Source: an uncultured bacterium
Lineage (GTDB): Bacteria; CAYUVA01
DNA: 64,000 bases
Reading direction: 5' to 3'
NCBI GenBank assembly: GCA_964448115.1
Contig: CAYUVA010000006.1
Location: forward strand, 43,608-107,607
The translations under genes were made by a program, and so were the position numbers. Shown in pieces: positions 40,740-64,000 of this stretch (its first letter is position 1; every line of letters starts with the position of its first letter). A model generated the notes under the pieces. That model saw only the letters and a program-made list of their open reading frames with translations, was not told the DNA's origin and searched no databases.

Positions 40740-42392
40740 ATGCGATTGCCTTTTAAACGATATGGGCGACCATTCTTGGTACTGCTGGGCATTGCCCTAA
40801 CGCTCGGAATAGTGCTTAGAGTTATGGGGCTTGGCTGGGGGATCGGACCCGATCTGTTTCACCCCGATGAGTGGAAGATCGTCAACGATGTGATCCTGAT
40901 TAACGATGGTAATTTCAAGCTCGGAGACTACAATTATCCGAGCGGATTTCACTATATTTGCTCGCTGGTAACTTTCATAGCTGCCAAGGTTGGCATAATC
41001 TGGGAATCCCTGTACAGTCCTCATATTCAATTACTCTGTCGCTGGATGACCATTTTGTTCGCCATGGCGAGCATAGTATTTATAGCTCTTTGCGGAGCGA
41101 GGCTTTATTCATGGCGAGTTGGTGCTTTCTCAGCCCTCTTTTTAGCCATTGCCACTATCCATGTAGTGCACTCGCATTACTGCACGGTTGATGTTGCAGC
41201 CACCGCCTGGATTCTATTCGTGCTTTATATCTCCACTTTTATCCTGGAAAAACCGAGTATGAAGCATTATATCTGGGCGGGTATCGGGGCTGGATTGGCA
41301 GCAGCCACCAAGTACAATGCTGGTCTGGCAGTAGTTATGCCTATAACAGCACATTTATTGAACTCGATCGCCGGCGATAGCCTCAATTATAAGCTGAAAA
41401 GCTTATTCAGGGCATTATTTTCATTCCGCCTGGTGGTCTTGGGATTCGTTGCCCTGATTGCCTTTATCGCGCTGGTTCCCTATGCGGTGCTTGACTTTCA
41501 GTGGGTCATAGTTGATGGCATGATCAAGCAGATACGCCAAGCCAAGGAGGGACCGGACTTCATGCCATACATGGATAAACCGCCCGGCTGGTATTATTAT
41601 CTAATTGAATTACTCCCCATAAGCATGGGGGCGCCGCTTTTAGCCCTATGCCTACTTGGCGGAATGATAACCCTCACCCGCTGGCGAAGGGCTGATATCA
41701 TCCTTTTGTCGTTCTTGGTGCCTTATTATCTGGGGCTTGGGTCAGCAAGCCTGATGTTCATTCGCCACGCGTTGTTTTTAGTCCCCATCCTGGTGTTATG
41801 GGGAGGTATAAGCTCGGATTGGTTGATAGGCATCCATGAAAAGTCGAAGAATAAGCTGGTCGCTTATGTTCCGATTACCCTTCTCGCCATGGTGCTCATC
41901 TATTCATTGGCACATTCGCTAGCTCACTCGCTGCTGTTTGTGCGCAAGGACACCAGGGATCAGGCAATGGAATACCTGGTTCAGTGCTACGATCCCCTGA
42001 CACCGATCGGTGTTATGATAAGTCCAGTAGGTCTTGATCGCTCAGATAAGCCTGCCTTGCATGAATTCTTTGATAATATATGTTTAGGATATTACCTACA
42101 GGAGATCTTCGAGTATAAGCCAGAAGTAATGGTATTTAGCAATTATGACTACCGACAGATCTTGCGTATGCACCATAAGCTAAAGCGTAGCGAGTGGCCG
42201 CACCAGCGCGATATGGTCTGGGAAGCTGACCTTTGGAGGATATTTCTCGCTGAAAGGTTCGATGGATGGTGGGAGGAAGCCAGGTTAGAGCGCAGGGCAA
42301 CCTTGCTTGGCATGGATTTCTCCGCTGATTGGATACCGCACGACTGGATGTACCTTAACCCAACAGTTCATATATTTAGACGAGATAACTGA
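40740..42392 (+). CDS. GT-C membrane glycosyltransferase, PMT/ArnT-like (family 39/83-like)
   Basis: A polytopic protein. The first-loop motif FHPDEWKIVNDV is present. Confidence 0.6.
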   Translation: MRLPFKRYGRPFLVLLGIALTLGIVLRVMGLGWGIGPDLFHPDEWKIVNDVILINDGNFKLGDYNYPSGFHYICSLVTFIAAKVGIIWESLYSPHIQLLCRWMTILFAMASIVFIALCGARLYSWRVGAFSALFLAIATIHVVHSHYCTVDVAATAWILFVLYISTFILEKPSMKHYIWAGIGAGLAAATKYNAGLAVVMPITAHLLNSIAGDSLNYKLKSLFRALFSFRLVVLGFVALIAFIALVPYAVLDFQWVIVDGMIKQIRQAKEGPDFMPYMDKPPGWYYYLIELLPISMGAPLLALCLLGGMITLTRWRRADIILLSFLVPYYLGLGSASLMFIRHALFLVPILVLWGGISSDWLIGIHEKSKNKLVAYVPITLLAMVLIYSLAHSLAHSLLFVRKDTRDQAMEYLVQCYDPLTPIGVMISPVGLDRSDKPALHEFFDNICLGYYLQEIFEYKPEVMVFSNYDYRQILRMHHKLKRSEWPHQRDMVWEADLWRIFLAERFDGWWEEARLERRATLLGMDFSADWIPHDWMYLNPTVHIFRRDN

Positions 42393-42487
42393 GTTACACC
42401 GCATGGACGAGTGCTTGGGCTATACCTGGCTTGGAATTATTGCTTTACTGATTTTGTTTCTTTAGAATATCCTATTGAGTTGACATA

Positions 42488-43549
42488 ATGGAAGTGCTTA
42501 TCAAGACAGCGGCTCGGCAGCCAATCTTGCTTCTACTGCTAGTGGCTCTTTATTTTCTACCGGTTATTGCTTGTGCACAGGAGAATCTTATCCCAAGACA
42601 TCCTCCCGAATCGCCATTTGGCATAAATATCCATCTACTGGACTGCGGCTCGTCGGAATGGGGTTTAGTGGAATATCTCGGCGTGGACTGGGTTAGGGTC
42701 GATTTCAACTGGGCTGATATAGAAGTTCAGGATAACCAGTATATCTGGAACCTGACCGAATCGAACTATTATGATTGCACTGCCCAGACAGCTAATAAAC
42801 TTGGCTTGAATGTATTTGCAACCATATCCAAGACCCCATCGTGGCTCGGCGAGAGTAACTCGGTTCCTGAAGTTCATGCCTGGATGGAATTTGTTCGCCA
42901 TGTAGTCGAACGCTATGATGGAGATGGATACGCCGATGCGCCGGGATCTCCTGTTATACGATACTGGGGGATGTGGAACGAGCCAGACAATACGGCATTT
43001 TTCACCGGCACTCTGGAGCAATATCGCGAGATCATCCTAAAGCCCGGATATCGTGCAGCCAAGAGCGCAGACCCGACCTGCAAGGTTGTGGGGCTGGCGG
43101 CAGCGGAGTACCTCTATCTGGGCTGGAATTGGGAGCCTATCTTCGATGATGGCGGAATAAATGCGCTCGATATAATTAGCACCCACGAGTACTACTACGA
43201 TGGCGATCCACTATACGAGGTGCTCAATGTGCTCGGAATTCTCGATGATCTCAACCCTTACGGCATACAGAAGGAGATCTGGATTACCGAGACCGGCTCA
43301 TATACTTATGGCGGTTCCCGCAAGGTAAGCGAGGCAGAGCAGGCCAAGAAGCTGAGAGAGATGTGCCATCATCTGATGTGTTTCTACAATGTGAGTAAGG
43401 TCTTCTTCTATGAGCTGAAGGACCTCCCCAACAGCGCTGGTTGGGGGCTTTTCAACATGAACAATACTCCCAAGCAGGCTGCCATTGCCTACCGGGAGAT
43501 CATCGAGCGATACAAGTGCAAACAGGGCGGAGATGTAACGCTGCCATGA
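42488..43549 (+). CDS. Secreted clan GH-A (GH5/GH39-like) glycoside hydrolase
   Basis: A signal peptide is present. The acid/base motif WNEPD and nucleophile motif WITETG are present. Confidence 0.5.
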   Translation: MEVLIKTAARQPILLLLLVALYFLPVIACAQENLIPRHPPESPFGINIHLLDCGSSEWGLVEYLGVDWVRVDFNWADIEVQDNQYIWNLTESNYYDCTAQTANKLGLNVFATISKTPSWLGESNSVPEVHAWMEFVRHVVERYDGDGYADAPGSPVIRYWGMWNEPDNTAFFTGTLEQYREIILKPGYRAAKSADPTCKVVGLAAAEYLYLGWNWEPIFDDGGINALDIISTHEYYYDGDPLYEVLNVLGILDDLNPYGIQKEIWITETGSYTYGGSRKVSEAEQAKKLREMCHHLMCFYNVSKVFFYELKDLPNSAGWGLFNMNNTPKQAAIAYREIIERYKCKQGGDVTLP

Positions 43550-44829
43550 TATCACAATATCGATCATTTCTGATATTGACGCTCATCTTCTACTCGATCA
43601 TACAAGCTGGCTGTCGGGAGGACTCGGTGATATTGCCATTGGAGGGGAGGGATTGGATGCGTATTGAGGCGGCGCAGATGGATGCCTCTGGGAGCCTGGA
43701 GGTAATAGCAGCCAACTACCAGGACAACGCCATCTTCGTTCTATCCGATGATGTCTCCCTGGGATGGCAGATAACTTACAAGATTGAACCTAATTTCCAG
43801 CTCGCCGATTTCATTGTGCTTGACTTCGGTGGGGGAAGGCTGAATCCATACTCGGCAAAGGATGATATTGCATATCTGCTCAAGGAATATACCCGCTATA
43901 ACACCGTGTTTATCAACCATTATTTGCAGGGAAACAAGTATGCCTTTCATGGCTGGGACATCAATCATCTAACCACCGGCGATATCGATGGAGACGGCAA
44001 CCATGAAGTCCTGTTCACTAACACATCGACTATGGGCTTCGATACCGAGCAGATCGTCTGCCTTGACCTGGTTAGCGGCATCATGGAGGAGATCATTGTG
44101 TGCGATGTGGTCATGGATTGGTGCCAGTTGATCTGCGGGGATGTGAGCGGGGACGGCGCTGATGAGGTGATCGCTGCCTCGAGGAAGTATGGTGTTATAG
44201 TGATATTCAGGTTCTGCCCTACTGACAGGAGTTTTCATATATATAAGAAGGCTTACCTGACCACCCCGATGTACGCTGGGCATATAGCGGATATGCAGAT
44301 GGCCGATAACCGTCTCTTTGTTGCCTCGGAGACACACCCCAGGGGAACTGTATTCGAGTTCATCCCTGAAGTGCTCCCCTGGCAGTATGGCTTCATTCAA
44401 AGACCGGTCGAGACCAACCCGTTTTATACCGCTCCAACGATTAGTACCGCTGATCTCGATGGAAATGGCGATATCGAGGTGGTATTCGCCAGCAAAGATC
44501 GCGGGGAGCTGTTCGCCTACGATATCGTAAATAACAACTGGCAACGAAATATCATTGCTGATATCGGAGTTCCAATAAAAGATATGGTTGCTGGCAGATT
44601 CTTAAGTCCATTCAGGCAGCAGGTGGCAGTGATCTATGATCAGGATCAACCAATATACCTGTATTCATTGCAAGATGGGCAAAAGGGATATGGTATCAAG
44701 CAGTTGACCGATCAAGGCAACAGGTTCCATGAGGCTGGCGCGGTCGATATCTATCAAGATGGTATCGATGAGCTTTTAATCGGCTGCCAGCAGGGTATCA
44801 TGCTCATCAGTCCGATCGCTGCCCAGTAA
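43546..44829 (+). CDS. FG-GAP/VCBS-repeat beta-propeller lipoprotein
   Basis: The ATG overlaps the upstream stop (ATGA). A lipobox ...IIQAGC is present. Repeats GDIDGDGNHEV, GDVSGDGADEV and ADLDGNGDIEV are present. Confidence 0.55.
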   Translation: MISQYRSFLILTLIFYSIIQAGCREDSVILPLEGRDWMRIEAAQMDASGSLEVIAANYQDNAIFVLSDDVSLGWQITYKIEPNFQLADFIVLDFGGGRLNPYSAKDDIAYLLKEYTRYNTVFINHYLQGNKYAFHGWDINHLTTGDIDGDGNHEVLFTNTSTMGFDTEQIVCLDLVSGIMEEIIVCDVVMDWCQLICGDVSGDGADEVIAASRKYGVIVIFRFCPTDRSFHIYKKAYLTTPMYAGHIADMQMADNRLFVASETHPRGTVFEFIPEVLPWQYGFIQRPVETNPFYTAPTISTADLDGNGDIEVVFASKDRGELFAYDIVNNNWQRNIIADIGVPIKDMVAGRFLSPFRQQVAVIYDQDQPIYLYSLQDGQKGYGIKQLTDQGNRFHEAGAVDIYQDGIDELLIGCQQGIMLISPIAAQ

Positions 44830-44957
44830 TCGACGCGGGTAGCGTAAACAAGTGGTCATTTATCCGAGCCGTGAGTTTAAGCGAGCGTTTATTCATTGCA
44901 ATTGATCACTCCCTAACAGTCGTGGCTCGGATTAGGGGCGCTGCCCAGTAATCTACG
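44818..44957. repeat. MITE-like element: 18-bp direct repeats GCTGCCCAGTAATC(G/T)ACG flanking about 104 bp with imperfect terminal inverted repeats ATCCGAGCCGTGAG / CAGTCGTGGCTCGGAT
   Basis: Read directly. The GGCTCGGAT core recurs at 53404 and 54143. Confidence 0.45.
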
Positions 44958-46358
44958 AAAGTTATCCCCTAATGAAGAAAAGATAAGCATCACCAGCAGC
45001 CCATACAAAGGCACAAAGATGCGCTCGAAGGACTGGATGATCACCACCTTAAGTGTTTCTGCGCCCGGTGCGCTCATGGATAATAACGATAATACTGCAA
45101 GATAAAGCAGGATCGGCGTTGTTAATAACCGGTTCTTATTGCTCCTTGTGAAATTCCTCGGAGCTAATAGAAACAGGATGGTCAATACAGTCCACAAATA
45201 TAGCCAGCAACCATCAAGGGCTATATCGTTTATAAAGCTGCTCCAGAAAATAAAGAGGTGATCAAGGTTGGATAGTATATGTAGCATTCCTGGTAACGAT
45301 AGCTCCAGGTAGTGAGCCTGCACTGCGCCCAGACCATGAACAAGGCAAAATACCTGCCAGGGTAGCACAATAAAGAAAAAAGAGAGGATGATAGGTAGCA
45401 GCCTAATAGCTTTCCTTGTTGGCGATCGCACCACCAGTACTGCGATGGCAAATCCGATGGATAATACAAGCCCCTCGTTCTTGATCATAGCTGATTGAGC
45501 ACAAAACAGCGAGGCTAGAACCAAAGCTGCTCTATCCTTTCTCTTTAGCCACCTGAGTAACCATCTCGCTGTCGCCGCCAGATATAGCCCCAGGCATAAA
45601 TCTACCTGCGCAACCACAGCTTGACTTAGAATAAGTGGGGAACTGCAGAAGATTAGGGAGATCACAAGGTTGACCCACTTTAATTCTGGATTCAATCCAC
45701 CCAGCCCCTGTGCGATGACCAGCACGAATAATAACCATAATAAAGTGGGAATTAGCTTGATCAGCCGCTCGTTGAACGAGCCGGCAAAATGGCAAACCCA
45801 AACCCCAAGCAGCGGGAAATGAAGCGGATAGTTTAAGGTAAGCGGATGCAACAATGGCATGGTAGCATTGGGATCAACCCTCGGATAAGGAGGATCCTGA
45901 TAGCGACCTGGATCTGTGAAATGCTCACCTAGCTCCCCCTGGTAATACAACAGCTTCGCCTTTAAGCCCCACACCGCGTACTCATCCAACTGTCGGAAGC
46001 CGAAATCGACTGAGGTGCTCGCCAAGGAAGCAACCAAAACCCCCATTATCCCTATTAGGGCAGTAGTGCGCTTCCATCTTATGGATAAGCATATAGAATA
46101 TAGATTTTCCCCTAGTCTCCAGAATCTAATTACGCAAACAAGAAAAGTGAAAAATAACATCAAACCCAACCAAAATGTAATGGTTAATCTGATGCCAACA
46201 AGTAACATGAGGTTTCCCGTAAAGCCGATCATTACAAGCCCCAGAAGCATTCCCCAAAGCATCACTTCGCCGAGCCTTTTGGCTTTTTGAGCGATGGACA
46301 AGTAGAGCAGGCAGCCCAGTAACAGCGGTATGAAAAGGCTGAGAACGACTGTCAGCAC
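44913..46358 (-). CDS. Polytopic membrane protein (possible GT-C glycosyltransferase or polymerase/ligase-like); last 14 codons encoded by the repeat element
   Basis: An ORF of about 12 TM. The C-terminal ...LLGSAPNPSHDC maps onto 44916-44957. Confidence 0.45.
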   Translation of the reverse strand: MLTVVLSLFIPLLLGCLLYLSIAQKAKRLGEVMLWGMLLGLVMIGFTGNLMLLVGIRLTITFWLGLMLFFTFLVCVIRFWRLGENLYSICLSIRWKRTTALIGIMGVLVASLASTSVDFGFRQLDEYAVWGLKAKLLYYQGELGEHFTDPGRYQDPPYPRVDPNATMPLLHPLTLNYPLHFPLLGVWVCHFAGSFNERLIKLIPTLLWLLFVLVIAQGLGGLNPELKWVNLVISLIFCSSPLILSQAVVAQVDLCLGLYLAATARWLLRWLKRKDRAALVLASLFCAQSAMIKNEGLVLSIGFAIAVLVVRSPTRKAIRLLPIILSFFFIVLPWQVFCLVHGLGAVQAHYLELSLPGMLHILSNLDHLFIFWSSFINDIALDGCWLYLWTVLTILFLLAPRNFTRSNKNRLLTTPILLYLAVLSLLSMSAPGAETLKVVIIQSFERIFVPLYGLLVMLIFSSLGDNFRRLLGSAPNPSHDC

Positions 46359-46369
46359 AGATAGGATTA

Positions 46370-46954
46370 TTACCGTTCCTCCTTTCTTTTCAGAATATAA
46401 GCTGATTCGCTGTATGCCAGGACTTTCTCATACTTACTTTCCAGGATGTTTCGCAACTCCTCATCCTCCAGCTTCAGGGGATCCCTGAAATATACTAGCG
46501 CATATTCGGCATCCGGTGGCAGTGCCCAGATATCACGCGGCGCAAGCAGATACTCGGCGCGCACATAATGATAGGGAAAGTCGGCGATCATCAATAGAAA
46601 TACAGAGTCATCCTGGTTGATCATCGCGCAACTGGCTGCTAGGAAATTCTCCAGCAAGGTAAATTTTGATGGCAACCCGGAACTGCTATATTCAGCTTGC
46701 AAATAATCCCGATTGAAAGTCAAACAATTCCAGAGATCTGGCACTGATTTAATTACCCCTAGTAGCAAAAAAACAAGCGCCAGGGTTAATGCGTATCCTC
46801 TCCATATACGAAGCGCCTGTGCCCATCGAGCCTTTCTAAGCGCCACTAAGGTCAGCATGACTAGCCAAAATAGAACTATAAATAAACCAGCAATGACCTC
46901 GAGACGATTCAATCCCCAGGTGAGAGCATAAAAGCGTAAGGCAGGCAAGCTCAA
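46370..46954 (-). CDS. Hypothetical membrane protein (194 aa)
   Basis: ORF with 2-3 TM segments. Confidence 0.4.
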   Translation of the reverse strand: MSLPALRFYALTWGLNRLEVIAGLFIVLFWLVMLTLVALRKARWAQALRIWRGYALTLALVFLLLGVIKSVPDLWNCLTFNRDYLQAEYSSSGLPSKFTLLENFLAASCAMINQDDSVFLLMIADFPYHYVRAEYLLAPRDIWALPPDAEYALVYFRDPLKLEDEELRNILESKYEKVLAYSESAYILKRKEER

Positions 46955-49363: not shown

Positions 49364-50890
49364 TCACCCGCCGAAGTCCACTCGTTGCACCTGCAGGGCA
49401 GCGCGCCTTGCTGGAGATAAGCGATTCTTAAAGCGACGCAATACGAAATATATCCAGCGATGTCTCATTGGGCGCACTAACTTCCAGTAGGCAGCATAGA
49501 CCGTGTAGTAATAAAGGTAAAAGCTCGCCTTGCGAAAGCGACTCCTGGGATTTGCATTCCAGAATCGAATCAGAAAGTAAGGAGTTCTGGGGATGATGCG
49601 CAGGATTCGGTTCAGGTAATTCGGCTCATAACACCAGAACTCCCTGGTGAAGACCTCATTGAGCCTTTCTTGCGGTATCCCTTCCTGGCGCGCCCTTTTT
49701 TCTAGTTGGGTGGCAGGGTAGAACATAAGGTGGGTGATCCCCAGGAAATAGGGCTTTTTAACCTTGGTTACCAGGTCGATGGTCTGTTGTGTATCCTCCT
49801 CGGACTCCCAGGGGCAGTCGGTAATGATATCGAGCCGAAGATCGAGTATGCGATCTCTGTACCTGTCAATAATTTCCATCACTTTCAGGAACTTTTTTCG
49901 GGAGGAATGTCGGTTGTATATATGCCTGGCTATGCGGTCGCTTCCGGTCTCCAGTCCAAGGTGAATGCCGACCAGTCCGGCATCGACCAGCAGGGCTAGC
50001 TTATCCTCCTTGATGGAGTTAGGATTTGACCAGCAAAAAAATGGCATATTTACCCGTTTCTTGTATTCCTCAGCAAAGCGCACCATCCATTCTTTTTTAT
50101 GAAACAAAAAGCTATCGTCCATGAAGACGAAAGCCTCGACAAAGGGAAGCCTATGTTTGATATCCTCAAGCTCGGTGATGAAGTTCTCGGCAGACCTTTC
50201 CCGCAAATACCTTCCGCCAGCAAGGCTATTGAAGAAGGAATTCAGGCAGTACGTACAGGAATACGGACAGCCGCGACTGGAGATGACATAGTGCAACCTC
50301 ACCGTTCCGGGGTATGTTCTTTCCATTATCTCCAGGCTCATGGGCACAATTTTCCCCCTGATTTGTATGAAATGATCCCGGTAGTCATAATCGGGGAATT
50401 CAAAGATATCGAGGTTACCGATTCGGTCCCTAGGCTCGTTTTTATGGATCACCCCGTCCTTTCTTACCCAGAGGTTGGGTATCTTGCGGTAGTCTTTTCC
50501 ATCCCTGATCGCCTCGGCAAGCTCGACCATAGGAAGCTCACCCTCCAGCACGCAGTTTATATCGACATGCTCCATGGAGACTTCAGGGAATGAGGTGGCA
50601 TGGACCCCTCCCCAGACAATAGGTGCATGGTTTACCTCTTTAATCCGCCTGGTGATGGCCACCCCCCTGGGGACATGACTGGACATGAGGCTGACACCGA
50701 TAAGGCCAGGCTTCTGCTCCCTTATCCAGCCAGCGATCTCGTCCAGCTCCAGCTCACTCTCCATGTCATGATGCTCCCTGACCAGGAAAAGGATGCTGGT
50801 GTCGAAGCCTGCTTTCTTGAGCATGGCAGCGATATACCTTATACCAAAGGCGACCAGGGTGTTTTCAAGGCTGATCAGGAGTACCTTCAT
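49364..50890 (-). CDS. B12-binding-domain radical SAM protein
   Basis: The N-terminal cobalamin-binding fold is present, followed by SSRGCPYSCTYC (CxxxCxxC). Confidence 0.75.
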   Translation of the reverse strand: MKVLLISLENTLVAFGIRYIAAMLKKAGFDTSILFLVREHHDMESELELDEIAGWIREQKPGLIGVSLMSSHVPRGVAITRRIKEVNHAPIVWGGVHATSFPEVSMEHVDINCVLEGELPMVELAEAIRDGKDYRKIPNLWVRKDGVIHKNEPRDRIGNLDIFEFPDYDYRDHFIQIRGKIVPMSLEIMERTYPGTVRLHYVISSRGCPYSCTYCLNSFFNSLAGGRYLRERSAENFITELEDIKHRLPFVEAFVFMDDSFLFHKKEWMVRFAEEYKKRVNMPFFCWSNPNSIKEDKLALLVDAGLVGIHLGLETGSDRIARHIYNRHSSRKKFLKVMEIIDRYRDRILDLRLDIITDCPWESEEDTQQTIDLVTKVKKPYFLGITHLMFYPATQLEKRARQEGIPQERLNEVFTREFWCYEPNYLNRILRIIPRTPYFLIRFWNANPRSRFRKASFYLYYYTVYAAYWKLVRPMRHRWIYFVLRRFKNRLSPARRAALQVQRVDFGG

Positions 50891-53823: not shown

Positions 53824-53841
53824 ATGTTCCACATGGAACAT
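53824..53841. promoter_or_regulatory. Perfect palindrome ATGTTCCA-CA-TGGAACAT in the long AT-rich intergenic region
   Basis: Read directly. Confidence 0.25.
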
Positions 53842-54187: not shown

Positions 54188-54264
54188 TTGACTACGATAG
54201 ACTATTTTACTATCAATGAGAGGGTTCAGCGGTAATTTATCCGCCTTTATATGGGTATTGAAGC

Positions 54265-54873: not shown

Positions 54874-54877
54874 CTTA

Positions 54878-55849
54878 TTGAAGACATTGAGCATAAGTAT
54901 AGAGGAAATCAATGGCGCTATCGAGGTAAAAAGATTGCTCACCGCTAAAGCGCTATACTCGGGCGACCTGTTCGTGCTCCAGGAATACTACCGTCGCCCC
55001 TTTGAACGGTTCGATGAATATACCAGGCACTTGGTCCCTCCCAAGAATATTCTTGAAGATCCTGAATTCGAGAGGATATACAACTCGGTACCCATTGAGC
55101 ATCTTGAGTCTGATGTGCCTTATGCGACCGTGCTCGAAGAGGTCGGTTTTCAGGCTATACGGCTCGGAAAGCTCTCCTATGCAGCCAAGTGCTTTGAGAT
55201 GATAAACAACACCGAGGGATACTTCGATGTTTTCACTCAGGTGGGCGAAGATCTTATAAATCTAGGCGATATAATGGGAGGTGGCAAGGCATGGGTGATC
55301 GCCTCGGCGATCAGGGACCCGGTGCTCAAAGTCCAGTATAAAGCCATAGAAAGACATCGCAATTGCCTGCAAAAGCCCTTCAATTGTATAGACAAGATCA
55401 AGCCGGACAACTGGATAAAGTCGGGAATAACTTACCTGCTCAACGATATCAAGATGCCCCAGGTGCAGGATCTTGCTCCCCAGAGGGCTGCCGAGCTGTT
55501 TCGCTTCCTGTGTCTCTTTCGTGATTATAACTTCGATGAGCTTCTGGATAATCTTACCAGGGCTGCGGACTATGTGCTCTCCAAGAGTAGTTTTACCAAA
55601 GAGGATTACCAGAGGGTACAAGACATGATACTCGGCTTTGATAGCAGCAACCAAAGCCTCGACTTCAACCTTGCCGATCTCGCCTTGGAGCATCCAGCGG
55701 GAGCGCTGTTGGTTTGTCCCCTGCGATACGAGGATGAGTATTACCTGTTCCCTATCCTGGTCAAAAATAAGCCCTTATTCAAGGTAGTTGAGTTGCACAA
55801 GGCTTTGACATTCAGGGCTAGCCTGCCCGAATCGAATCAGCGTGAATAA
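54878..55849 (+). CDS. Hypothetical protein (323 aa)
   Basis: ORF between the J-like gene and the radical SAM gene. No family recognised. Confidence 0.5.
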   Translation: MKTLSISIEEINGAIEVKRLLTAKALYSGDLFVLQEYYRRPFERFDEYTRHLVPPKNILEDPEFERIYNSVPIEHLESDVPYATVLEEVGFQAIRLGKLSYAAKCFEMINNTEGYFDVFTQVGEDLINLGDIMGGGKAWVIASAIRDPVLKVQYKAIERHRNCLQKPFNCIDKIKPDNWIKSGITYLLNDIKMPQVQDLAPQRAAELFRFLCLFRDYNFDELLDNLTRAADYVLSKSSFTKEDYQRVQDMILGFDSSNQSLDFNLADLALEHPAGALLVCPLRYEDEYYLFPILVKNKPLFKVVELHKALTFRASLPESNQRE

Positions 55850-55864
55850 TCGCCATACTCACTT

Positions 55865-56998
55865 ATGAACTATGATCGCATCTATCGGCTTGCAACCAAC
55901 TTGTATAGCGGAGCGCAGAGATATCTTATTCCAGCCGGCTGGGCATATCGTCCCTTATCGGTCATAATGGTTGTTACGCTAAGGTGTAATTTTAGGTGCT
56001 CAATGTGCTTCATCAACAAGGAGAATGCTCTTAGTAGCGATCAGACAGAGGTTCCAGCCAGGGAGCTATCCAGGGATAGCATCCTTAGCTTCATAAATAA
56101 ACTACCTCGATACACCATCCTGACTTTCACCGGCGGTGAGCCTTACATGCGCAAGGATTTCGATGAGATACTCCAAGCCACGGCAACAAGGCATCCATGT
56201 CATATAATTACCAACGGAATGCTGCTTAATGATTCGAGGATCCAACAACTGGTCGAGCTTAGGCAAAAGGGAGCATTTTCGCCGGGTGTGGCACTGGTAG
56301 GTGTTTCCTTGCTTGGACCTCGTGATGTACACGATGATCTATGCAAGGTAAAAGGCTCTTTTGAGCAGGTAGTTGACCAGACCGTGCTTCTCAGCGACAT
56401 GGCGCATCACCAGGATAGTTTGAAGCCCTTAATAGACCTAAAGGTTGTGGTAACAGCCGACAACTATGAATCATTACCCGAACTACTGCCGACCATCCGC
56501 AAGATAAAACCAAGATATCTCACCCTTCAAGCCGAGTCCCAGATAAGCTATTACTGGTACACGCCGATTCCTAAGCATAATCAGGATGTGAACCACCTGG
56601 ATGCAACCGCCTTTGATAGGTATCCCCCGGCAACACACATACCTGATATCTATACATTGAAGCGAAACATCGAGGCGATAAGGCAGGGATTAAAAGGACA
56701 GGGAACTAGGCTACGCCTGTATCCTCATGCACCTTTGGAGCGATTTATCGAACAATTCGATAAGCCGCTGACCGGCAGGTATCACTGTAGTATTCCCTGG
56801 TACACGATGGTGGTCGATGCTGCCGGCAATGTAGGTAACTGTATCGATGGAGTCTATGGCAACATAAGCGAATATTATGAAGATCCCTTGAGGATGTTCA
56901 ATCATCCCCGGATGCGTGCCTTTCGTAAGCTCTTAGGAAAACATCGCTTTTTCAAGGCTTGTCGTGGCTGCTGCTGGCTCGAGTACATGCCGTGGTAA
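55865..56998 (+). CDS. Radical SAM protein with C-terminal SPASM/twitch-like Cys cluster
   Basis: The N-terminal motif is VTLRCNFRCSMC. The C-terminus has CSIPW...NCIDG...CRGCCW. Confidence 0.7.
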   Translation: MNYDRIYRLATNLYSGAQRYLIPAGWAYRPLSVIMVVTLRCNFRCSMCFINKENALSSDQTEVPARELSRDSILSFINKLPRYTILTFTGGEPYMRKDFDEILQATATRHPCHIITNGMLLNDSRIQQLVELRQKGAFSPGVALVGVSLLGPRDVHDDLCKVKGSFEQVVDQTVLLSDMAHHQDSLKPLIDLKVVVTADNYESLPELLPTIRKIKPRYLTLQAESQISYYWYTPIPKHNQDVNHLDATAFDRYPPATHIPDIYTLKRNIEAIRQGLKGQGTRLRLYPHAPLERFIEQFDKPLTGRYHCSIPWYTMVVDAAGNVGNCIDGVYGNISEYYEDPLRMFNHPRMRAFRKLLGKHRFFKACRGCCWLEYMPW

Positions 56999-57021: not shown

Positions 57022-59391
57022 TTACTGAAATCTCAGCTCTACCAGCCCAACGGATAACCGCCTAGGATCATCGCTCATACCGAGAGCTTTCGGGGAGCGA
57101 GCCTTGGATGCAAACAGCTCGATGGTATTGATGCCCCTTACTATACAATTCCCGTTAAATCTAAAATAGTACTCCCTTATTTCAGGTTCGAGCTGGATAT
57201 TAAATTTCGCTTTGCGGTTGATGACTACGATTAGGTTTTGATCTTTTGCATCATAAGGAAATGGAAGAGCCTTGATTATCATCTGGTCTATCTCATTGTT
57301 TGTTGCGTAGAGGATAATTTCTCCCCGGAACCCTTCCATCCAGGTGCCGAAGGATTCGGGTTCAGAGAATCCCTTTACCAGGTAGCGTTTGCTTTCTTGG
57401 ATATTGAACTCGATGCGATTGTCCTTTACTTCAAGGTATTTCAGGTCCGAGATATCGGCGTTTGCCGTTGGATAATAAAGATGATCCGAGCCTTTTATAG
57501 CTATTGCCTTGAACAGTGGCAATCTTTCAATGATCGCCTCATACTGCCTGGGAGCAGTTTTGATTATGCTGCCGGTCTCCTTGTCCAAAGCGACCAGGTT
57601 CAATCCGGGAAGATCAGGGGATACCTGACGGCCATTAACATAGATATGTGCGAAATCTCCCATATCAAAGGCTCCGAGTTCGATTCTTATACCAGTCGGC
57701 ATCCTTGCGTTGAACATGCCTTGATAATCGTTGGGATAAAGGTTCACTGCACCGAGATTATCGATAGTTCTTATCATGCAGGTTCCCATCAGGTTGCCGA
57801 TGATACAAAACGGCTTGTCCGCGCTTCTATGGTTGAGATCATGGATGCACCCAAGCATCGACTCGAAATCGAGCAGCTCGCTCAGCCATCTTCTCCCCTG
57901 TTTACGCTCTGCTAGGAGTATTACCGCATCCCGCTCGAGATCGCTTAATGCCCGATAGACCGCCTGCCCGGGTGATGGCTGGCGAATACGCCGAAACAGC
58001 ATCTCATCGGCAATGCCGGCAGGCAACTTGTATGCGTAAGCCCGCATAGGCTGGTTAGGCTTTTCTATCGATCCAATAACAGGGATCCAAAGGTCATCTC
58101 GATATCGCATCACCGAAGATGCATAAGCGAGAGTCCAGTACCATTCCCATTGCACTGGCAGATAAACTGCCGCATTGAATCCCAGCGGATCGAGCATCTG
58201 GTGGATCAACCTCATGCCATCGGTTTGGGTCGATGCTTCTATGCTAGTAAGTTTCCCAGGAAGCATACCAATGCAACGGCTTATTACGATAAGGACGACC
58301 AGAACGGCGAGCCATCCATGGAGCTTTCTTTTATCCTGTAGTATCCATCGCAACGAGAAGGCAGCGAAAATGGCTAGTAGAGCAGTGGTGGGCAACAGGA
58401 AATACCTGATATCACTTATCGCATAGCCTAAGGCAAAGGCGACCTGCAAAAGGCACCCTATGCTCATCGCTAGCCAGATCATGGATCTACTTGCCAGGAG
58501 CAATGCAAAGCCGATTGATGCTAATAATAGGACGATAAATGGCATATCCCTTGTGATATAGATTCCGAAGAGTCGCAGCCGATCAGCGAGTTTCTCCAGC
58601 GGTAAGGCATATACAAGCTGACTGTATTGCCTGGCGGTTATGTGATGCAGCGCCCCTTTTAGTCTGCTCAGATCCTGCGGATACGCCGATTCGGGCAGCC
58701 TTATGAAGACAAACAAATAAACAGAGATCCCCATGAGAAAAAGTAAGACCAGGATGGGTGCTTTTCGGAGAAAAAACCGCCAATCTTTGATGACAATGAC
58801 AAGCGCACCCGGTAGCAAAAATGCTATGAAAGTGAGGTGGTGAGCAACTCCTAGCCCTGCAATGAAGCCTGATAGATATAATAATCGCTCTCTTCCAAAA
58901 TGAAGGTATGCATAAATGGAGGTTATAAAGAAAAGGGTCAATACCAGGTTTAACGAGTAAACCTCAGCCTGCATGCTCGATTCCAGGAATATACCCCCCG
59001 TGCCAACGAATATCGCTGCTCCGAGTGCACAAAACCAAGAGCCGGTGGCTAATAAAAGAAGATAATACGTCGCCTGCACCGCGATGGATGCAAACATTGC
59101 GTTGATGACATGAGCCTTGAAACAGGCAGAGCCAGTCGGAAGCAACATGCCAAATCGGGTCAACAGCACGGCGAGAGGATAGCCGGGGGGATGCAGAGGA
59201 TGCAATCGCCAGCTATTTACCGCTATCGAGGAGGTATCATAATAACCGATATCCTGGTTGATGGATAATAGGAAAAGCTGAAGAGCAACTAAAAACACCA
59301 CTGGAAGATGTTTAAGTGAGCAACCTGTCTTGGCTTGGTCTTTGCAGTCATATTTAATGCGCCGAGCTGGAAACATGGTTTTTTCAAGCAC
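57022..59391 (-). CDS. DUF2723-family GT-C membrane glycosyltransferase with large C-terminal extracytoplasmic domain
   Basis: The motif ...WRLHPLHPPGYPLAVLL is shared with the 46958 gene. An N-terminal roughly 450-aa polytopic region is present. Confidence 0.6.
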   Translation of the reverse strand: MLEKTMFPARRIKYDCKDQAKTGCSLKHLPVVFLVALQLFLLSINQDIGYYDTSSIAVNSWRLHPLHPPGYPLAVLLTRFGMLLPTGSACFKAHVINAMFASIAVQATYYLLLLATGSWFCALGAAIFVGTGGIFLESSMQAEVYSLNLVLTLFFITSIYAYLHFGRERLLYLSGFIAGLGVAHHLTFIAFLLPGALVIVIKDWRFFLRKAPILVLLFLMGISVYLFVFIRLPESAYPQDLSRLKGALHHITARQYSQLVYALPLEKLADRLRLFGIYITRDMPFIVLLLASIGFALLLASRSMIWLAMSIGCLLQVAFALGYAISDIRYFLLPTTALLAIFAAFSLRWILQDKRKLHGWLAVLVVLIVISRCIGMLPGKLTSIEASTQTDGMRLIHQMLDPLGFNAAVYLPVQWEWYWTLAYASSVMRYRDDLWIPVIGSIEKPNQPMRAYAYKLPAGIADEMLFRRIRQPSPGQAVYRALSDLERDAVILLAERKQGRRWLSELLDFESMLGCIHDLNHRSADKPFCIIGNLMGTCMIRTIDNLGAVNLYPNDYQGMFNARMPTGIRIELGAFDMGDFAHIYVNGRQVSPDLPGLNLVALDKETGSIIKTAPRQYEAIIERLPLFKAIAIKGSDHLYYPTANADISDLKYLEVKDNRIEFNIQESKRYLVKGFSEPESFGTWMEGFRGEIILYATNNEIDQMIIKALPFPYDAKDQNLIVVINRKAKFNIQLEPEIREYYFRFNGNCIVRGINTIELFASKARSPKALGMSDDPRRLSVGLVELRFQ

Positions 59392-59578: not shown

Positions 59579-61273
59579 TTGCAAATGTCATCCAAAAGCT
59601 CAAGACGAATAGTGATTATAGGCGGTGTAGCTACGGGTCCCAAGGCTGCTGCCCGGATAAGACGACTCGACCCAGATGCGGAGATAATAATAATCGAACA
59701 AGGAGAGTACTTCTCCTATGCATCCTGTGGATTGCCATACCTGGTTGCAGGTGCAGTGCCAGGCGTTTCCGATTTGCTCACCACCCCCTGGGGCGAAAAG
59801 CGAGATGCAGATTTCTTCAAGCGGACAAAGAATATCGAGGTGAGAAACTGTACCCGCGCCTTGAGCATCAATCGAGAGATGAAAGTGCTTAAGGTCGAGG
59901 ATCTACAAAATGGCAGTAAGTACGATTTGCCCTATGATAAGCTAGTAATTGCCACTGGAGCCGAGCCGGTAAAACTCGATATCCCGGTCGATGAATATGA
60001 GAATGTCTTCGGTGCCCACAGCATAGACCAGGCGCAACGAATAATCGATTACATCAATGATATGGATGTTGAAAATGCGGTTGTTGTCGGGGCAGGGCTT
60101 ATCGGACTGGAGATGGTCGATGCATTATCAGCCATGGCAGTTGAAGCGACTCTAATTGAATCTCAGCAACACATTGCACCCTATATCCTCGACCCCGAGA
60201 TGGCGACCTTGCTTAAAGCCAACCTGGAGAAGATGCAAGTAAAGGTTATCGCCGGTCAGCGAATCGTCGATCTCGAAGGTGAAAATAAAAGGGCAAATAC
60301 AGTGATTACCGATAAAAGCCGCCTCCAAACCGAGATGATCATCCTCTGTACCGGCATGAAACCGAATGTTCGGCTGGCTCAACAGGCAGGACTGAAAATA
60401 GGAGAAACTGGAGCTATCACGGTTAATCAATTCATGCAGACCAGCGATCCTGACATCTACGCCGGCGGTGATTGCATTGAAAATATCCATAAGATCACCG
60501 GCAAGCCCTATAATCAGCCCCTAAGCGGCTCTACAGCCAATCGGCATGGCAGGATCATCGGCAGCAATATCTGTGGTATAAAGGAGACGCTTCCACCGGT
60601 TGTAGGGACGGTTATCTTCAAGACTATGGGTATGAATATGGGCAAAGTAGGTCTTGGCGAAAGGGAGGCAATTAACCTTGGCTATGAGACCATTTGTGCC
60701 TATGCTCCTACAAAGGACAAGGCGCACTATTTCCCCGGTGGCAAGCCCTTTATTATAAAGCTGATCGCAGATAGAAAGACGCAAAGGCTGTTAGGTGCTC
60801 AATTCCTCGGCTCTGGGGAGATCTCCAAGCGCCTGGATGTGGTAGCCACCGCATTGTACCTGGGGGCGAGCATCGATGATCTTTCCTCGATTGAATTAGG
60901 TTATTCGCCACCTTTTAGTGGCGCGATACACGGGCTGACACATGCGGCAAACACCATGAGAAACAAAATCGAGCTCAATATTCCATCCATGCCCATTCAA
61001 AAGATAAAGCAAAAGATAAAACTAGGCGAGGATTTCATTTTGCTCGATGTGCGCACAACTGCCGAGTTCGACAAGGGAAGCATCAATGATCCTAGAACTA
61101 GAAATATACCACTTGACCAGCTTCGAGGTAGATTGAAAGAGCTTCCTTCTGACACGCAGATTATTACCTTCTGTAAGATTGGCGCGCGCGGATATGAGGC
61201 AGCAAAGCTACTCAGGGATTCTGGTCTCAGGAATGCTTGCTTTATGGACGGCGGCTTCGAGATGTGGTGGTGA
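59579..61273 (+). CDS. CoA-disulfide reductase/NADH oxidase-family flavoprotein fused to C-terminal rhodanese domain
   Basis: The FAD motif RIVIIGGVATG is present, as is the single redox Cys SYASCGLPY. The rhodanese domain has ...FILLDVRTTAEF...FCKIGARG. Confidence 0.75.
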   Translation: MQMSSKSSRRIVIIGGVATGPKAAARIRRLDPDAEIIIIEQGEYFSYASCGLPYLVAGAVPGVSDLLTTPWGEKRDADFFKRTKNIEVRNCTRALSINREMKVLKVEDLQNGSKYDLPYDKLVIATGAEPVKLDIPVDEYENVFGAHSIDQAQRIIDYINDMDVENAVVVGAGLIGLEMVDALSAMAVEATLIESQQHIAPYILDPEMATLLKANLEKMQVKVIAGQRIVDLEGENKRANTVITDKSRLQTEMIILCTGMKPNVRLAQQAGLKIGETGAITVNQFMQTSDPDIYAGGDCIENIHKITGKPYNQPLSGSTANRHGRIIGSNICGIKETLPPVVGTVIFKTMGMNMGKVGLGEREAINLGYETICAYAPTKDKAHYFPGGKPFIIKLIADRKTQRLLGAQFLGSGEISKRLDVVATALYLGASIDDLSSIELGYSPPFSGAIHGLTHAANTMRNKIELNIPSMPIQKIKQKIKLGEDFILLDVRTTAEFDKGSINDPRTRNIPLDQLRGRLKELPSDTQIITFCKIGARGYEAAKLLRDSGLRNACFMDGGFEMWW

Positions 61274-61297
61274 TACAGGCTTGAGGTTGGAGATTTT

Positions 61298-64000
61298 TTA
61301 GCTGCCGACCGCTATTTGCTGTTTACGCTTGAGTTGCTTTGTCTGAGCTGATATCGCCTCCACATAACCGGGATCAATCTTCAGTATATCGAGCTTTTCT
61401 TGGAGTAGATCCTTAAGTTCAAGCTCGCCGAGGCTTAGCATTCTAAGGTTGAAATGAGGGTTCTTATCCAATGCCATCGATCTAAAGCGAGTAAAATGAT
61501 TTACACAATCCTGGTAGCGATGTTCCATCCCATAGGCGATGCCAATAAGCAGGTAACTAAGCGGAGCCCCTTTCTCGGCGAGGTTCTGACTATCGATATA
61601 CTCTAATACCTTTTTGTAGGCGTTACCGCGCAATAGTTCGATGGCGAAGCGGAGCTTTTCCTTGTTGTTTTTGAAAAGTGCGCCGATGTCATACCCCCTG
61701 AGATACATTTCGCAGAGCCTTCCCCAATCACCAGTTTTATAATAAACCCTCGCCAGGGGATCATCGAATACGGCGGGATCGGGGCTGCGAAGCTGACATT
61801 GCTGGTAAAAAAACTTGGCAGGGCTGTAAAGATGCAGCCCATAAGCAATCCTGCCCATAAGGCGATGAATCTGGTATGCAATCCCCCCTATAGTGTATAT
61901 ACCTACCTTGTCGATAATCGCAGAGTCAACCGATCCAGGGCTATTGATAATCGATATCTTGCCAGCTATCCCAAGCTCAAGCTTAATCTTTCCAGCCTGC
62001 CAGAATAAGTACCTGCTATTGAAGCGCCCAAGCTCCTGATTATTATTCTTCACCAGCACTTCTGCTTTGGCTGGGGATTTACAGAATACTACCAGTCTTC
62101 TTGGATGCTTGGTTGGCTTGATTTCAAGGCTTATCCAGTCGCCGGGCTGAAGTTCCCAGCCATAATATGACTCGCCATGATAGTAGGGATCCTTTTTTAC
62201 AGGGAAGATTCTGCCTCCATTTTTGTAAAAATCGTGCTTGTCCTCAGCCTCGAAGACATGCTGCCTGAGGGTCGCTGCAAAAAATAAGATGATGACAACC
62301 AGGCTAAAAATAGCTAAAAAACAGGTGGAGCGTGCCAGATACAATGGATATTTATCAAGGCACGGCTTTTTGCGTATCACTAAGAAAAGTCCAAGGAGGA
62401 CTATCCCCAATAGTGCCATGATAATTCCAATGCCGTTTACTCGGATAAAGGAGGGGAATACTTGTGTGAAGGCGAGGCGGCTGCCGTCATCGAATATCTC
62501 GAAGAGTACACCAGTTCCATCAGCCATGTTTGCCCGCACATCTGGTATGCAATAGGATAGGGCTAATATAATTGATGATAGCAACATCAACGGCGGAAAT
62601 AGAGCCGATGAGATCGCTGGATATCGTTTTACCAAGGCAGCCAGGTAAAGACCGCCAAACGGGATAAGCAACCCAATATACCTCCCCGGTGGCGTGGGGG
62701 CGCTGTGCCACATCGGATGACACGAGTAAACAAAATATCCCAGAACAATGGCAGCCTTTATTATTCTATCAAGATGCCGATATTCCAGCCTTGCTAGTAA
62801 CATTCCCACTAACACTAGTCCTAAAACCGGGCTGTAGATCAGCAATCCAGCCTCCTGATCAAAGAGCAAGCCAAACAAGCCCCTTATCGCACTTGAATCA
62901 GGAAGGTAGTTTTTTAGCTGGTAGATGGCGCCAAAGCGTTTGAAAATGAGATCCCCCTTCAAGAGCGTTAAATCCCCTAGGATTATGATCCCAATCAAGG
63001 GGATCAGTGTTAGCAGTAGGTACAATCTAAGGGCACGCTTTTGGGCATGAGTCAATACAATAAGCGCACCGATAACCAAGGTCAAAGCCACCGGCGCATA
63101 TCGTATCTTCAAGACCATCAACCCTAGTGCTAGCAGTAATATAATTGTGGTCGCTCCAAGGATTTGCTTTAAGGTGGGATTTGATGAACCATGCTTCAAT
63201 AAAAGCGCCAACATGCCCCCCAAAATGAGCATTGCCACTGTCTCTGGATATATCTGGGTAGCTAACAGCCCAATGGGCATGGTAAAGGCGATCGCCGTCC
63301 AGGCAATTATGGATCCCCTCCCCTCGCCGATAACTTTTACATAGAGTCGGTAATAAACAGCCATTGCACAGGCTGAGATGATGGCAATGGTTAATGTGGC
63401 GCCTAGCCGCCCGAGAACCGCAAATAAAGGCAACAAGACCAGGGGAAACAAGACACCTAGCCCCTGAGAACGTATCTCCCCTTTTATGACTATATCAGAT
63501 GGCTTCGGCTCCAGTTCATACCAATAAAAATCTTGGTAGTCCTTATCTTGATAACCCCGATACTGATTTATGCTGCCGTCCTTCAGGATCGCATTAGTGA
63601 TCATCAGGTAATGTGGCTCATCGCCGGTTGTGCTATAAGATATGACCGCCAGGTGTGCGAGCGAAATATAGACTACAGTGCAGACAAGCAAAGCTTTAAG
63701 GAACCCATGTTTACTCGATGATTTGCTTGATGCCCCCAGGAGCCTTGAGGTGCAAAGAATGACAAAACCCGCTGCATAAGCCAGGTGAACTAGTTGAATG
63801 AAGAGTATCTGCGACCAGACCGATCGACTGGCAAATAATCCAATCAAAGGCAGAAGGCTGATATTTATCGAGCTTAACAATAAAGGGGATGGGGAACCTG
63901 GAAAAAACAAGGTCCTATGAAAAAAGGCTGCCAGCGGAAAAATGAATGACCATATAGCGATCAGATCAATAAAAGGCTTGGATCGTGCACAGAAGTGGAT
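61298..64000 (-). CDS. Large polytopic GT-C-like membrane protein (GDEPHYL loop motif) with C-terminal TPR region; 5' end beyond window
   Basis: The reading frame is open to 64000, and the ORF-track start at 63910 is a TTG. TPR-like repeats are present in the C-terminal 300 aa. Confidence 0.55.
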   Translation of the reverse strand: MHFCARSKPFIDLIAIWSFIFPLAAFFHRTLFFPGSPSPLLLSSINISLLPLIGLFASRSVWSQILFIQLVHLAYAAGFVILCTSRLLGASSKSSSKHGFLKALLVCTVVYISLAHLAVISYSTTGDEPHYLMITNAILKDGSINQYRGYQDKDYQDFYWYELEPKPSDIVIKGEIRSQGLGVLFPLVLLPLFAVLGRLGATLTIAIISACAMAVYYRLYVKVIGEGRGSIIAWTAIAFTMPIGLLATQIYPETVAMLILGGMLALLLKHGSSNPTLKQILGATTIILLLALGLMVLKIRYAPVALTLVIGALIVLTHAQKRALRLYLLLTLIPLIGIIILGDLTLLKGDLIFKRFGAIYQLKNYLPDSSAIRGLFGLLFDQEAGLLIYSPVLGLVLVGMLLARLEYRHLDRIIKAAIVLGYFVYSCHPMWHSAPTPPGRYIGLLIPFGGLYLAALVKRYPAISSALFPPLMLLSSIILALSYCIPDVRANMADGTGVLFEIFDDGSRLAFTQVFPSFIRVNGIGIIMALLGIVLLGLFLVIRKKPCLDKYPLYLARSTCFLAIFSLVVIILFFAATLRQHVFEAEDKHDFYKNGGRIFPVKKDPYYHGESYYGWELQPGDWISLEIKPTKHPRRLVVFCKSPAKAEVLVKNNNQELGRFNSRYLFWQAGKIKLELGIAGKISIINSPGSVDSAIIDKVGIYTIGGIAYQIHRLMGRIAYGLHLYSPAKFFYQQCQLRSPDPAVFDDPLARVYYKTGDWGRLCEMYLRGYDIGALFKNNKEKLRFAIELLRGNAYKKVLEYIDSQNLAEKGAPLSYLLIGIAYGMEHRYQDCVNHFTRFRSMALDKNPHFNLRMLSLGELELKDLLQEKLDILKIDPGYVEAISAQTKQLKRKQQIAVGS

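Follow-up and report, generated by a model that had tools for sequence, protein, structure and literature searches.

Do five polytopic membrane-protein genes lying close together on one bacterial chromosome make up a single glycosylation system, or are they separate enzymes that share a neighbourhood? The genes in question occupy positions 40740–64000 of a 64,000-nucleotide stretch (hereafter the window) of contig CAYUVA010000006.1, from the GenBank assembly GCA_964448115.1 of an uncultured bacterium. A preliminary description of this DNA took the region for one multi-enzyme system that glycosylates, and perhaps methylates, the cell envelope. We find that the polytopic proteins are glycosyltransferases of the GT-C type, one of them apparently a bacterial member of the family of human TMEM260, a protein O-mannosyltransferase. 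We favour, with moderate confidence, the reading that the region is a paralog-rich chromosomal neighbourhood of separate GT-C enzymes and not one machine. Genes are named here by the lower of their two window coordinates (Table 1).

The polytopic proteins are GT-C glycosyltransferases

The region holds 15 genes, five of which encode polytopic proteins, and a sixth candidate lies at 15899; GT-C density is thus 5 of 15 genes here versus 1 of ~45 in positions 1–40739. Every listed open reading frame (ORF) was found in place, and hydropathy analysis predicted all six candidates to be polytopic, with a core of ~7–13 transmembrane (TM) helices; the models of 61298 and 44913 are helical as well. Single-sequence PDB searches with the 61298, 44913 and 40740 proteins returned nothing useful, and profile searches of PDB sequences with two alignments (A1 and A2) gave no match, so fold comparison and profile–profile comparison were needed. 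The assignments have different bases: profile matches only for 40740, 57022 and 15899, AlphaFold2 (AF2) models for 44913 and 61298, and a sequence match to TMEM260 for 46958.

The 40740 protein passes the Pfam PMT_2 threshold (PF13231; E 3e-9, 37.7 bits against a cut-off of 26.1) and has ~11 hydrophobic segments. The 15899 protein has no Pfam match. It partially matches the NCBIfam model of an AftB-type beta-arabinofuranosyltransferase (E 4.5e-11) and also matches the LA_3751/2 putative glycosyltransferase family, both far below cut-off; the AftB-type match agrees with the early suggestion of a further GT-C at this position.

Two proteins called for more distant comparisons. The 44913 protein, which the deposited annotation gives as 449 aa with a start at 46262, has no Pfam or NCBIfam match of its own, and a word-based search returned only itself. 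Homologs numbered 373 in a full HMMER scan of 1.84 billion representatives, and PMT_2 was present in 33 of 50 of these. Aligned with DUF2723 by hhalign, it reached a probability of 94.7% (E 6e-8). Its AF2 model (pLDDT 88.5) had significant PDB matches to GT-C enzymes only: AglB, ArnT, STT3, Pmt4, PimE, ALG9, AftB and PglB. We take 44913 to be a divergent, PMT_2-like minimal GT-C core. The 61298 protein likewise has no Pfam or NCBIfam match; the membrane part of its AF2 model (pLDDT 77, pTM 0.79) matches AftA, ArnT and ALG12, and its hhalign probability against DUF2723 is 94.2%.

An acidic motif sits in the predicted first periplasmic loop: HPDEW in 40740, IDDDAF in 15899, D143/E144 in the family of 61298, D93 in the family of 44913, and D30 and E33 in DUF2723. 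Within their families D143/E144 and D93 are invariant, and the DUF2723 alignment shows conservation of D30 and E33.

Could the polytopic proteins instead be transporters, or other proteins that carry such motifs by chance? The lack of a direct Pfam or NCBIfam match for 44913 and 61298 would allow it. The idea is effectively refuted by fold searches whose significant matches included GT-C enzymes and no transporters, by DUF2723 profile–profile probabilities of 94–95%, by the prevalence of PMT_2 among the 44913 homologs and by the invariant acidic loop residues. We conclude that all five polytopic proteins, and 15899, are GT-C-type glycosyltransferases. Pfam, profile–profile and fold matches thus bear out the five genes listed for the region in the preliminary description, and the remote-homology and structure check that it had named placed the candidates with GT-C enzymes. 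From fold and family, their donors would be polyprenyl-phosphate sugars. The five genes fall into four sequence families: PMT_2, the divergent PMT_2-like minimal core, TMEM260/DUF2723 (two copies), and a family outside Pfam, marked by the motif GDEPHYL.

A bacterial TMEM260-family enzyme and a divergent paralog

TMEM260 (Pfam PF11028, DUF2723) is the endoplasmic reticulum protein O-mannosyltransferase for IPT domains, for which cryo-EM structures are available (9RQL, 9RQM, 9RQN). The human enzyme has D52, H67, R264, Y267 and R355 as donor-binding residues and D441 as catalytic base. The 46958 protein scores 86.4 bits against the Pfam TMEM260-like model (cut-off 24.2) and matches TPR_1 and TPR_2 at E ~1e-27, as expected from its first description as a GT-C with TPR. 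Its residues 12–431 align with the human TMEM260 cryo-EM chain (9rql) at E 1.6e-37, an alignment that runs through the GT-C core into the beginning of the luminal Rossmann-like domain. Five of the six functional residues are kept (D30=D52, H45=H67, R236=R264, Y239=Y267, D406=D441). The sole replacement is that of R355 by Pro321, leaving four of five donor-binding residues, and D406, which aligns with the catalytic base, is nearly invariant among bacterial homologs. Going by these residues, 46958 can be regarded as a bona fide TMEM260-family enzyme. Because four of the five donor-binding residues, the catalytic-base Asp and a TPR domain are present, a protein acceptor is predicted, and periplasmic protein O-glycosylation is a reasonable prediction for its activity.

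The 57022 protein is a distant paralog of 46958 (E 1e-20) that also passes the TMEM260-like cut-off (Table 1). It shares the N-terminal core and HPPGYP motif of the family and, when searched alone against the DUF2723 profile, matched with a one-sequence E-value of 1.4e-45. Aligned to this profile, it retains D and H, has its Arg one position off and carries Ser in place of the family-invariant Glu; Trp stands at the position of the catalytic-base Asp. No TPR match was found in the Pfam scan. The C-terminal ~350 aa are of a non-TPR type with a weak DUF7024 match, below cut-off.

DUF2723 had been equated with TMTC in the preliminary description, which does not hold. DUF2723 is the TMEM260 family, no protein matched TMTC_DUF1736, and the TPR-bearing protein is TMEM260-like instead, so none of these enzymes belongs with TMTC1–4 (GT105). 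The only paper in the searchable literature to mention DUF2723 is that on the human enzyme. Bacterial DUF2723/TMEM260 homologs are nonetheless numerous, and 46958 keeps the split active site recently described in human TMEM260.

A widespread GT-C family with a GDEPHYL motif

The 61298 gene runs past the end of the window; the deposited annotation gives it 916 aa and a start at ~64048. Its GDEPHYL motif, predicted to lie in the first periplasmic loop, is invariant in the family. Residues ~598–719 match CBM36, CBM6 and CBM35, families of carbohydrate-binding module (CBM), by fold. Of the domains first ascribed to this protein, GDEPHYL plus TPR, the motif stands and the TPR is weak: there is no Pfam TPR match, and the C-terminus was modelled as helical with low confidence. 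The CBM-like domain, seen in the AF2 model, had been missed.

The family has at least 475 relatives in JGI metagenomes. In four loci (Table 1), the closest homologs of 61298 come as two adjacent GDEPHYL paralogs, ~1030–1060 aa and ~1100 aa long, the stop of one gene overlapping the start of the next. This tandem coupling suggests heterodimeric GT-Cs, and from it we predict that another paralog lies upstream of 61298, shortly after the window ends. A widespread GT-C family that lies outside Pfam and combines the GDEPHYL motif, a CBM-like domain and tandem pairs could now be defined and characterised.

Module A and the case for a polysaccharide locus

The first three genes of the region form a plausible operon-scale module on the plus strand (module A, 40740–44829) that comprises a GT-C, a hydrolase and an FG-GAP lipoprotein. 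The best PDB match of the 42488 hydrolase is PslG (4zn2/5bx9; E 7.4e-6, residues 61–338), and the motifs WNEPDN and ITETG (NEP, TETG) are present. In Pfam it scores 17.9 bits against GH39 (cut-off 26), and Glyco_hydro_cc is also below cut-off. The hydrolase stop overlaps the FG-GAP start codon as ATGA at 43546–43549. The PslG match and this overlap agree with the earlier proposal of a secreted clan GH-A hydrolase translationally coupled to an FG-GAP lipoprotein; the FG-GAP start, first put at 43441, is corrected to 43546. Module A probably acts on a glycan, since a PslG-like glycosidase is paired here with a GT-C, as in polysaccharide machinery. Immediately upstream of 40740, at the left edge of the cluster, is a minus-strand gene (40265–40630) for a "23S rRNA-intervening-sequence protein", a bAvd-like four-helix bundle.

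Module A raises the possibility that the region is a surface-polysaccharide locus (exopolysaccharide, capsule or lipopolysaccharide-like) in which GT-Cs would glycosylate the polymer in the periplasm after polymerisation, as in Gtr/GT136 systems, and the PslG-like hydrolase would process it. The GH39-type gene in an operon with a GT-C, the CBM-like domain of 61298 and a literature on GT-Cs and CBMs that act on O-antigen and arabinan speak for this. We consider it rather unlikely, since the window has no Wzx/Wzy, ABC transporter, synthase, GT2/GT4, polyprenyl-phosphate sugar synthase or recognisable flippase genes, and the TPR and conserved catalytic base of 46958 favour a peptide acceptor.

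Module B and its radical SAM/methyltransferase pair

A second plausible module runs on the minus strand from 51771 to 44913 (module B): methyltransferase, B12-binding radical S-adenosylmethionine (SAM) enzyme, TMEM260/TPR enzyme, small TM protein and minimal GT-C. Spacing is tight, with gaps of 3 nt and 11 nt and a 4-nt overlap between the start of 49364 and the stop of the upstream methyltransferase. Module B probably acts on protein; that the radical SAM/methyltransferase pair tailors the sugar donor or the product is speculative.

The best PDB match of the 49364 radical SAM protein is AprD4, a sugar-modifying enzyme (E 5e-10). Its NCBIfam matches were all below threshold (98.9 against 360; 89 against 578), the best being a lipid-biosynthesis B12-binding radical SAM model and HpnJ. 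These similarities, the presence of ArnT among the structural matches of the GT-Cs and the adjoining gene for a FadL-type lipid porin might be read as signs of a lipid-modification locus, in which 49364 and the methyltransferase would modify a membrane lipid (hopanoid- or ladderane-like) and the GT-Cs would glycosylate lipids as ArnT does lipid A. This is very unlikely. The NCBIfam matches fall far short of the family cut-offs, the best solved relative modifies sugars, no hopanoid or lipid A genes occur in the window, and lipid-directed GT-Cs lack TPR and CBM domains.

The small 46370 protein may work with the minimal GT-C as a conserved partner. Near 44913 homologs in two other loci, L084 (1992–2450) and L085 (3–689), a small membrane-anchored ORF abuts or overlaps the GT-C start from upstream. 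A loose motif, Y..Y.[LI].PR, is common to 46370 and these ORFs, which are otherwise weakly similar. We also considered 46370 as a stand-alone TMEM260 Rossmann-like domain that acts in trans with 44913; at the level of sequence this was rejected (hhalign probability 0.4%, no HMM match).

Two loci from other genomes suggest what a linked pathway may look like (Table 1). In metagenome-assembled genome (MAG) CSMAG_2758, locus L047 is an operon in which a GT2 resembling the polyprenyl-phosphate sugar synthases AglJ, PpgS and ArnC is followed by a deacetylase, a B12-binding radical SAM enzyme (best matches BchE and HpnJ, sub-threshold), a methyltransferase and a DUF2723 GT-C. Locus L016, from a Nitrospirota MAG, has a looser version of this set. 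The L047 operon is similar in logic to the Arn and HpnI/K/J pathways but ends in a TMEM260-like transferase. By analogy, these two loci suggest that such pairs may tailor a lipid-linked sugar, which the GT-C would then transfer. The radical SAM protein of the window is only 26–30% identical to those of L047 and L016.

Layout, donor genes and co-conservation

The layout of the region speaks against one system. Its genes lie on both strands in at least six transcription units: (+) 40740/42488/43546; (−) 50887/49364/46958/46370/44913; (+) 51875; (+) 54265/54878/55865; (−) 57022; (+) 59579; (−) 61298. Pfam confirmed the radical SAM/methyltransferase pair, the FadL-family outer-membrane protein and the radical SAM/SPASM enzyme that had been noted among the GT-C genes. 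Three interspersed units, FadL, the DnaJ–unassigned–radical SAM/SPASM genes and the CoA-disulfide reductase–rhodanese gene, have no evident link to glycosylation, and we regard them as bystanders; the DnaJ unit is probably unrelated to the GT-C genes. The 59579 protein scores 388.8 bits against the NCBIfam CoA-disulfide reductase model, below its equivalog cut-off. Between the FadL and DnaJ-domain genes is a gap of ~940 bp (53321–54264), unusually long for an otherwise compact region, with no convincing ORF and no Rfam match.

Donor supply was sought across the window. Among Pfam matches in the 64 kb there was no polyprenyl-phosphate sugar synthase (GT2 or phosphoribosyltransferase type) and no recognisable flippase (GtrA, SMR or MATE), so that a Gtr-type three-component system lacks two of its components here.

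Co-conservation was assessed at the family level (~25–32% identity), there being no close relative for a comparison of orthologs. A GTDB scan with a DUF2723-TPR alignment gave 79 loci, with a best identity of 31%, dominated by Firestonebacteria, Elusimicrobiota and others, often with several paralogs per genome. Searched by tblastn with the proteins of the region, these loci had B12-binding radical SAM homologs in four and a 40740-like GT-C in one, with no homologs of the hydrolase, FG-GAP, small protein, methyltransferase, FadL or 44913. A second DUF2723 gene lay within 10 kb in 11 of 79 loci. In a Pfam census of the 144 immediate neighbours of 77 DUF2723 homologs, only TMEM260-like (11), TPR (6) and PMT_2 (4) recurred. 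The closest GDEPHYL homologs have contexts that are mutually syntenic and unlike the region, and across 82 GDEPHYL loci other GT-C families are rare neighbours. The gene set did not recur in either survey, which speaks against one system. As only GT-C paralogs recur as neighbours, the one recurrent feature of these families is paralog clustering; donor genes normally lie elsewhere.

A conserved link between B12-binding radical SAM and DUF2723 genes was also considered and rejected, since no more than 4 of the 79 loci have such a homolog within 10 kb. Of these four, L021 lies in a row of dnaK/dnaJ-sized genes and is probably coincidental, and only L047 and L016 look functionally linked. No close relatives of the radical SAM protein were found in JGI metagenomes. 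Two Firestonebacteria MAGs, JBBTED01 and MFGS01 (L003–L015, L053), each carry at least four separate DUF2723-TPR loci among the best 80 matches, which points to large lineage-specific expansions of the DUF2723 GT-C family.

One machine or separate enzymes

What, then, of a single envelope protein O-glycosylation system, with several GT-Cs to assemble a glycan or attach it to envelope proteins, methylation by the radical SAM/methyltransferase pair, trimming by the hydrolase, and the outer-membrane protein and lipoprotein as substrates or accessories? The intact split active site of the TMEM260/TPR enzyme, the bacterial precedent of TfpW (a TPR-bearing GT-C that glycosylates pilin), the high density of GT-C genes and the tight spacing of module B favour it. 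The dispersal over at least six units on both strands, with unrelated genes interleaved, and the lack of a donor synthase or recognisable flippase in the window do not. A clear TPR together with the catalytic-base Asp occurs in just one of five GT-Cs, and neither is present in the other TMEM260-like protein. The CBM and GH39 features speak for glycans, and the set does not recur around homologs. We judge a single system to be unlikely. Of the original proposal, the GT-C enzymes stand and protein O-glycosylation by 46958 is reasonable; their union in one machine is not supported.

The reading of separate enzymes would work as follows. As fold and family suggest, each enzyme would act at the outer face of the inner membrane, taking its sugar from a polyprenyl-phosphate carrier. 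The conserved acidic loop after the first periplasm-facing helix would do the chemistry, passing the sugar to a periplasmic acceptor that the appended domain would select. In 46958, TPR and catalytic-base Asp would direct the sugar to an extended polypeptide, as in human TMEM260. The CBM-like sandwich of 61298, and the co-transcribed PslG-like endoglycosidase and beta-propeller lipoprotein of 40740, would point these two to surface glycans or exopolysaccharides. Genes for making and flipping the lipid-linked donors presumably lie in other parts of the genome, as is usual for this family. The region most likely mixes a protein-directed enzyme (46958) with glycan-directed ones (61298, probably 40740), given that TPR-bearing GT-Cs of known function (TMEM260, TfpW) act on proteins and CBM-bearing ones (GT136 ORF12, Emb, AftD) on glycans.

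Several points weigh against this reading. To find five GT-C genes within 23 kb is striking, and genes that cluster often share a function. The tight spacing of module B ties two of the GT-Cs to the radical SAM/methyltransferase pair, and L047 indicates in an unrelated MAG that a pathway joining such a pair to a GT-C exists at least there. The lack of co-conservation was seen only at the family level, and the acceptor assignments would all follow from domain types.

A further, joint proposal is one that we consider improbable: operon B would be a bacterial TMEM260-type protein O-glycosylation pathway in which the radical SAM enzyme and methyltransferase tailor the sugar, at the polyprenyl-phosphate stage or after transfer, and the minimal GT-C with its small membrane partner extends the glycan; separately, GDEPHYL tandem pairs would be obligate heterodimers like Pmt1–Pmt2 or EmbA–EmbB. 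If the region is a set of clustered paralogs, as we favour, its value as a discovery of new biology is tempered.

Genomic setting

The window is ordinary chromosome, with the nuo operon (1696–13680), mnmA, ccmE/F and a fumarase subunit gene. G+C content is flat across it (0.45–0.56), and its profile gives no sign of a foreign island. The organism itself is isolated: no close relatives were found among GTDB representative genomes or JGI metagenomes, and at 90% identity even NuoF and NuoH stand alone among ~15 billion proteins. The same genes were found on one 5.8-kb Logan contig (SRR15988951).

Between the isolated GT-C at 15899 and the main cluster lies a Tad/Flp pilus locus on the minus strand (23373–30528), with secretin, RcpC, TadE/G-like proteins and prepilin peptidase. 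ARAGORN called a 91-nt tRNA-Pro (anticodon AGG) at 34109–34199 (+), within a 790-aa ORF (32667–35039) that has no Pfam match; the call is probably a false positive.

Table 1. Features of the window, and related loci in other genomes (the latter in the coordinates of each locus)
Feature	Coordinates	Strand	Basis
GT-C-like polytopic protein, IDDDAF loop, 23 kb from cluster	15899..17410	+	partial NCBIfam match
PMT_2 (ArnT/PMT-like) GT-C, 550 aa, LFHPDEW loop after TM1	40740..42392	+	Pfam PMT_2
Secreted PslG-like GH39 (clan GH-A) hydrolase with signal peptide	42488..43549	+	PslG match, motifs
FG-GAP repeat protein, lipoprotein-type signal (…IIQAGC)	43546..44829	+	FG-GAP_3 41.2 bits (cut-off 26.9)
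Minimal GT-C, membrane core without large periplasmic domain	44913..46358	−	homologs, hhalign, AF2 model
Small 194-aa protein, two TM segments and C-terminal soluble part	46370..46954	−	no family match
TMEM260-family (DUF2723) GT-C with C-terminal TPR, 761 aa	46958..49243	−	Pfam, human TMEM260 match
B12-binding radical SAM protein, CxxxCxxC	49364..50890	−	Pfam B12-binding, Radical_SAM
Class I SAM-dependent methyltransferase, first gene of putative operon B	50887..51771	−	Pfam Methyltransf_31, _23, _11, others
FadL/Toluene_X outer-membrane beta-barrel, divergent from operon B	51875..53320	+	Pfam Toluene_X 87.7 bits
Three-gene unit: J-domain protein, unassigned 323-aa protein, radical SAM/SPASM	54265..56998	+	Pfam
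Divergent TMEM260-like GT-C, 789 aa, without TPR	57022..59391	−	Pfam TMEM260-like 36.3 bits (cut-off 24.2), profile alignment
CoA-disulfide reductase-like flavoprotein with C-terminal rhodanese	59579..61273	+	Pfam Pyr_redox_2, Rhodanese
GT-C without Pfam model: GDEPHYL loop, CBM-like beta-sandwich, helical C-terminus	61298..64000	−	AF2, hhalign
GDEPHYL tandem pairs	L001:6837-13303; L002:6819-13315; L087:4141-10577; L131:6639-13084		
L047 operon (MAG CSMAG_2758), tight overlaps: GT2, polysaccharide deacetylase (DUF3473), B12-binding radical SAM, methyltransferase, DUF2723 GT-C	6253-11878		
L016 (Nitrospirota MAG), looser version of the L047 set: DUF2723-TPR, GT2, deacetylase, GT4, B12-binding radical SAM, CDP-alcohol phosphatidyltransferase	7347-18202		

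Comparison with known systems

Against the ArnT/PMT_2 clan (GT83/GT39; Cupriavidus ArnT 5F15, fungal Pmt1/2/4), 40740 passes the PMT_2 threshold, and the models of 44913 and 61298 superpose on ArnT with TM-scores of 0.41–0.51 and share an acidic motif in the first periplasmic loop. They differ in that none belongs to an ArnT or PMT equivalog model, no arn or dpm genes are nearby, and there is no MIR domain. The 42488 hydrolase is like PslG, the periplasmic endoglycosidase of the Psl exopolysaccharide pathway, in its signal peptide, GH-A catalytic motifs and near full-length match. It differs in that no other psl-type genes are near, its partners being a GT-C and an FG-GAP lipoprotein.

In three-component periplasmic glycosylation (GtrA/GtrB/Gtr*), the GT136 enzyme ORF12 carries a CBM (Kelly et al. 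2024, PMC11127046). The 61298 protein resembles it in joining a GT-C to a carbohydrate-binding-type beta-sandwich, and the same logic of periplasmic transfer from polyprenyl phosphate is proposed for it. The likeness is one of architecture, and the window encodes neither the Gtr synthase nor the flippase.

Pseudomonas aeruginosa TfpW, a GT-C with a periplasmic TPR, arabinosylates pilin and is encoded directly downstream of the pilin gene. The 46958 protein has the same layout of GT-C core and C-terminal TPR, and the window too has a pilus locus, of the Tad type. Here, however, the pilus genes are >10 kb away with no adjacent pilin gene, and TfpW is Emb/ArnT-like, not TMEM260-like. By analogy with TfpW, and with a Tad locus in the window, pilins are conceivable substrates.

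The nearest comparison remains human TMEM260, from which 57022 departs in lacking the TPR, the invariant Glu and the catalytic-base Asp. The 46958 protein differs in being bacterial, so that its donor carrier would be of the undecaprenyl type, in having Pro for R355, and in sharing a putative operon with a B12-binding radical SAM enzyme, a methyltransferase and a second GT-C, which has no eukaryotic counterpart. It is like human TMEM260 in GT-C core, start of the Rossmann-like domain, D441 equivalent and terminal TPR. Because it keeps the split active site of the human enzyme, 46958 offers a concrete candidate with which TMEM260-type protein O-glycosylation can be tested in bacteria.

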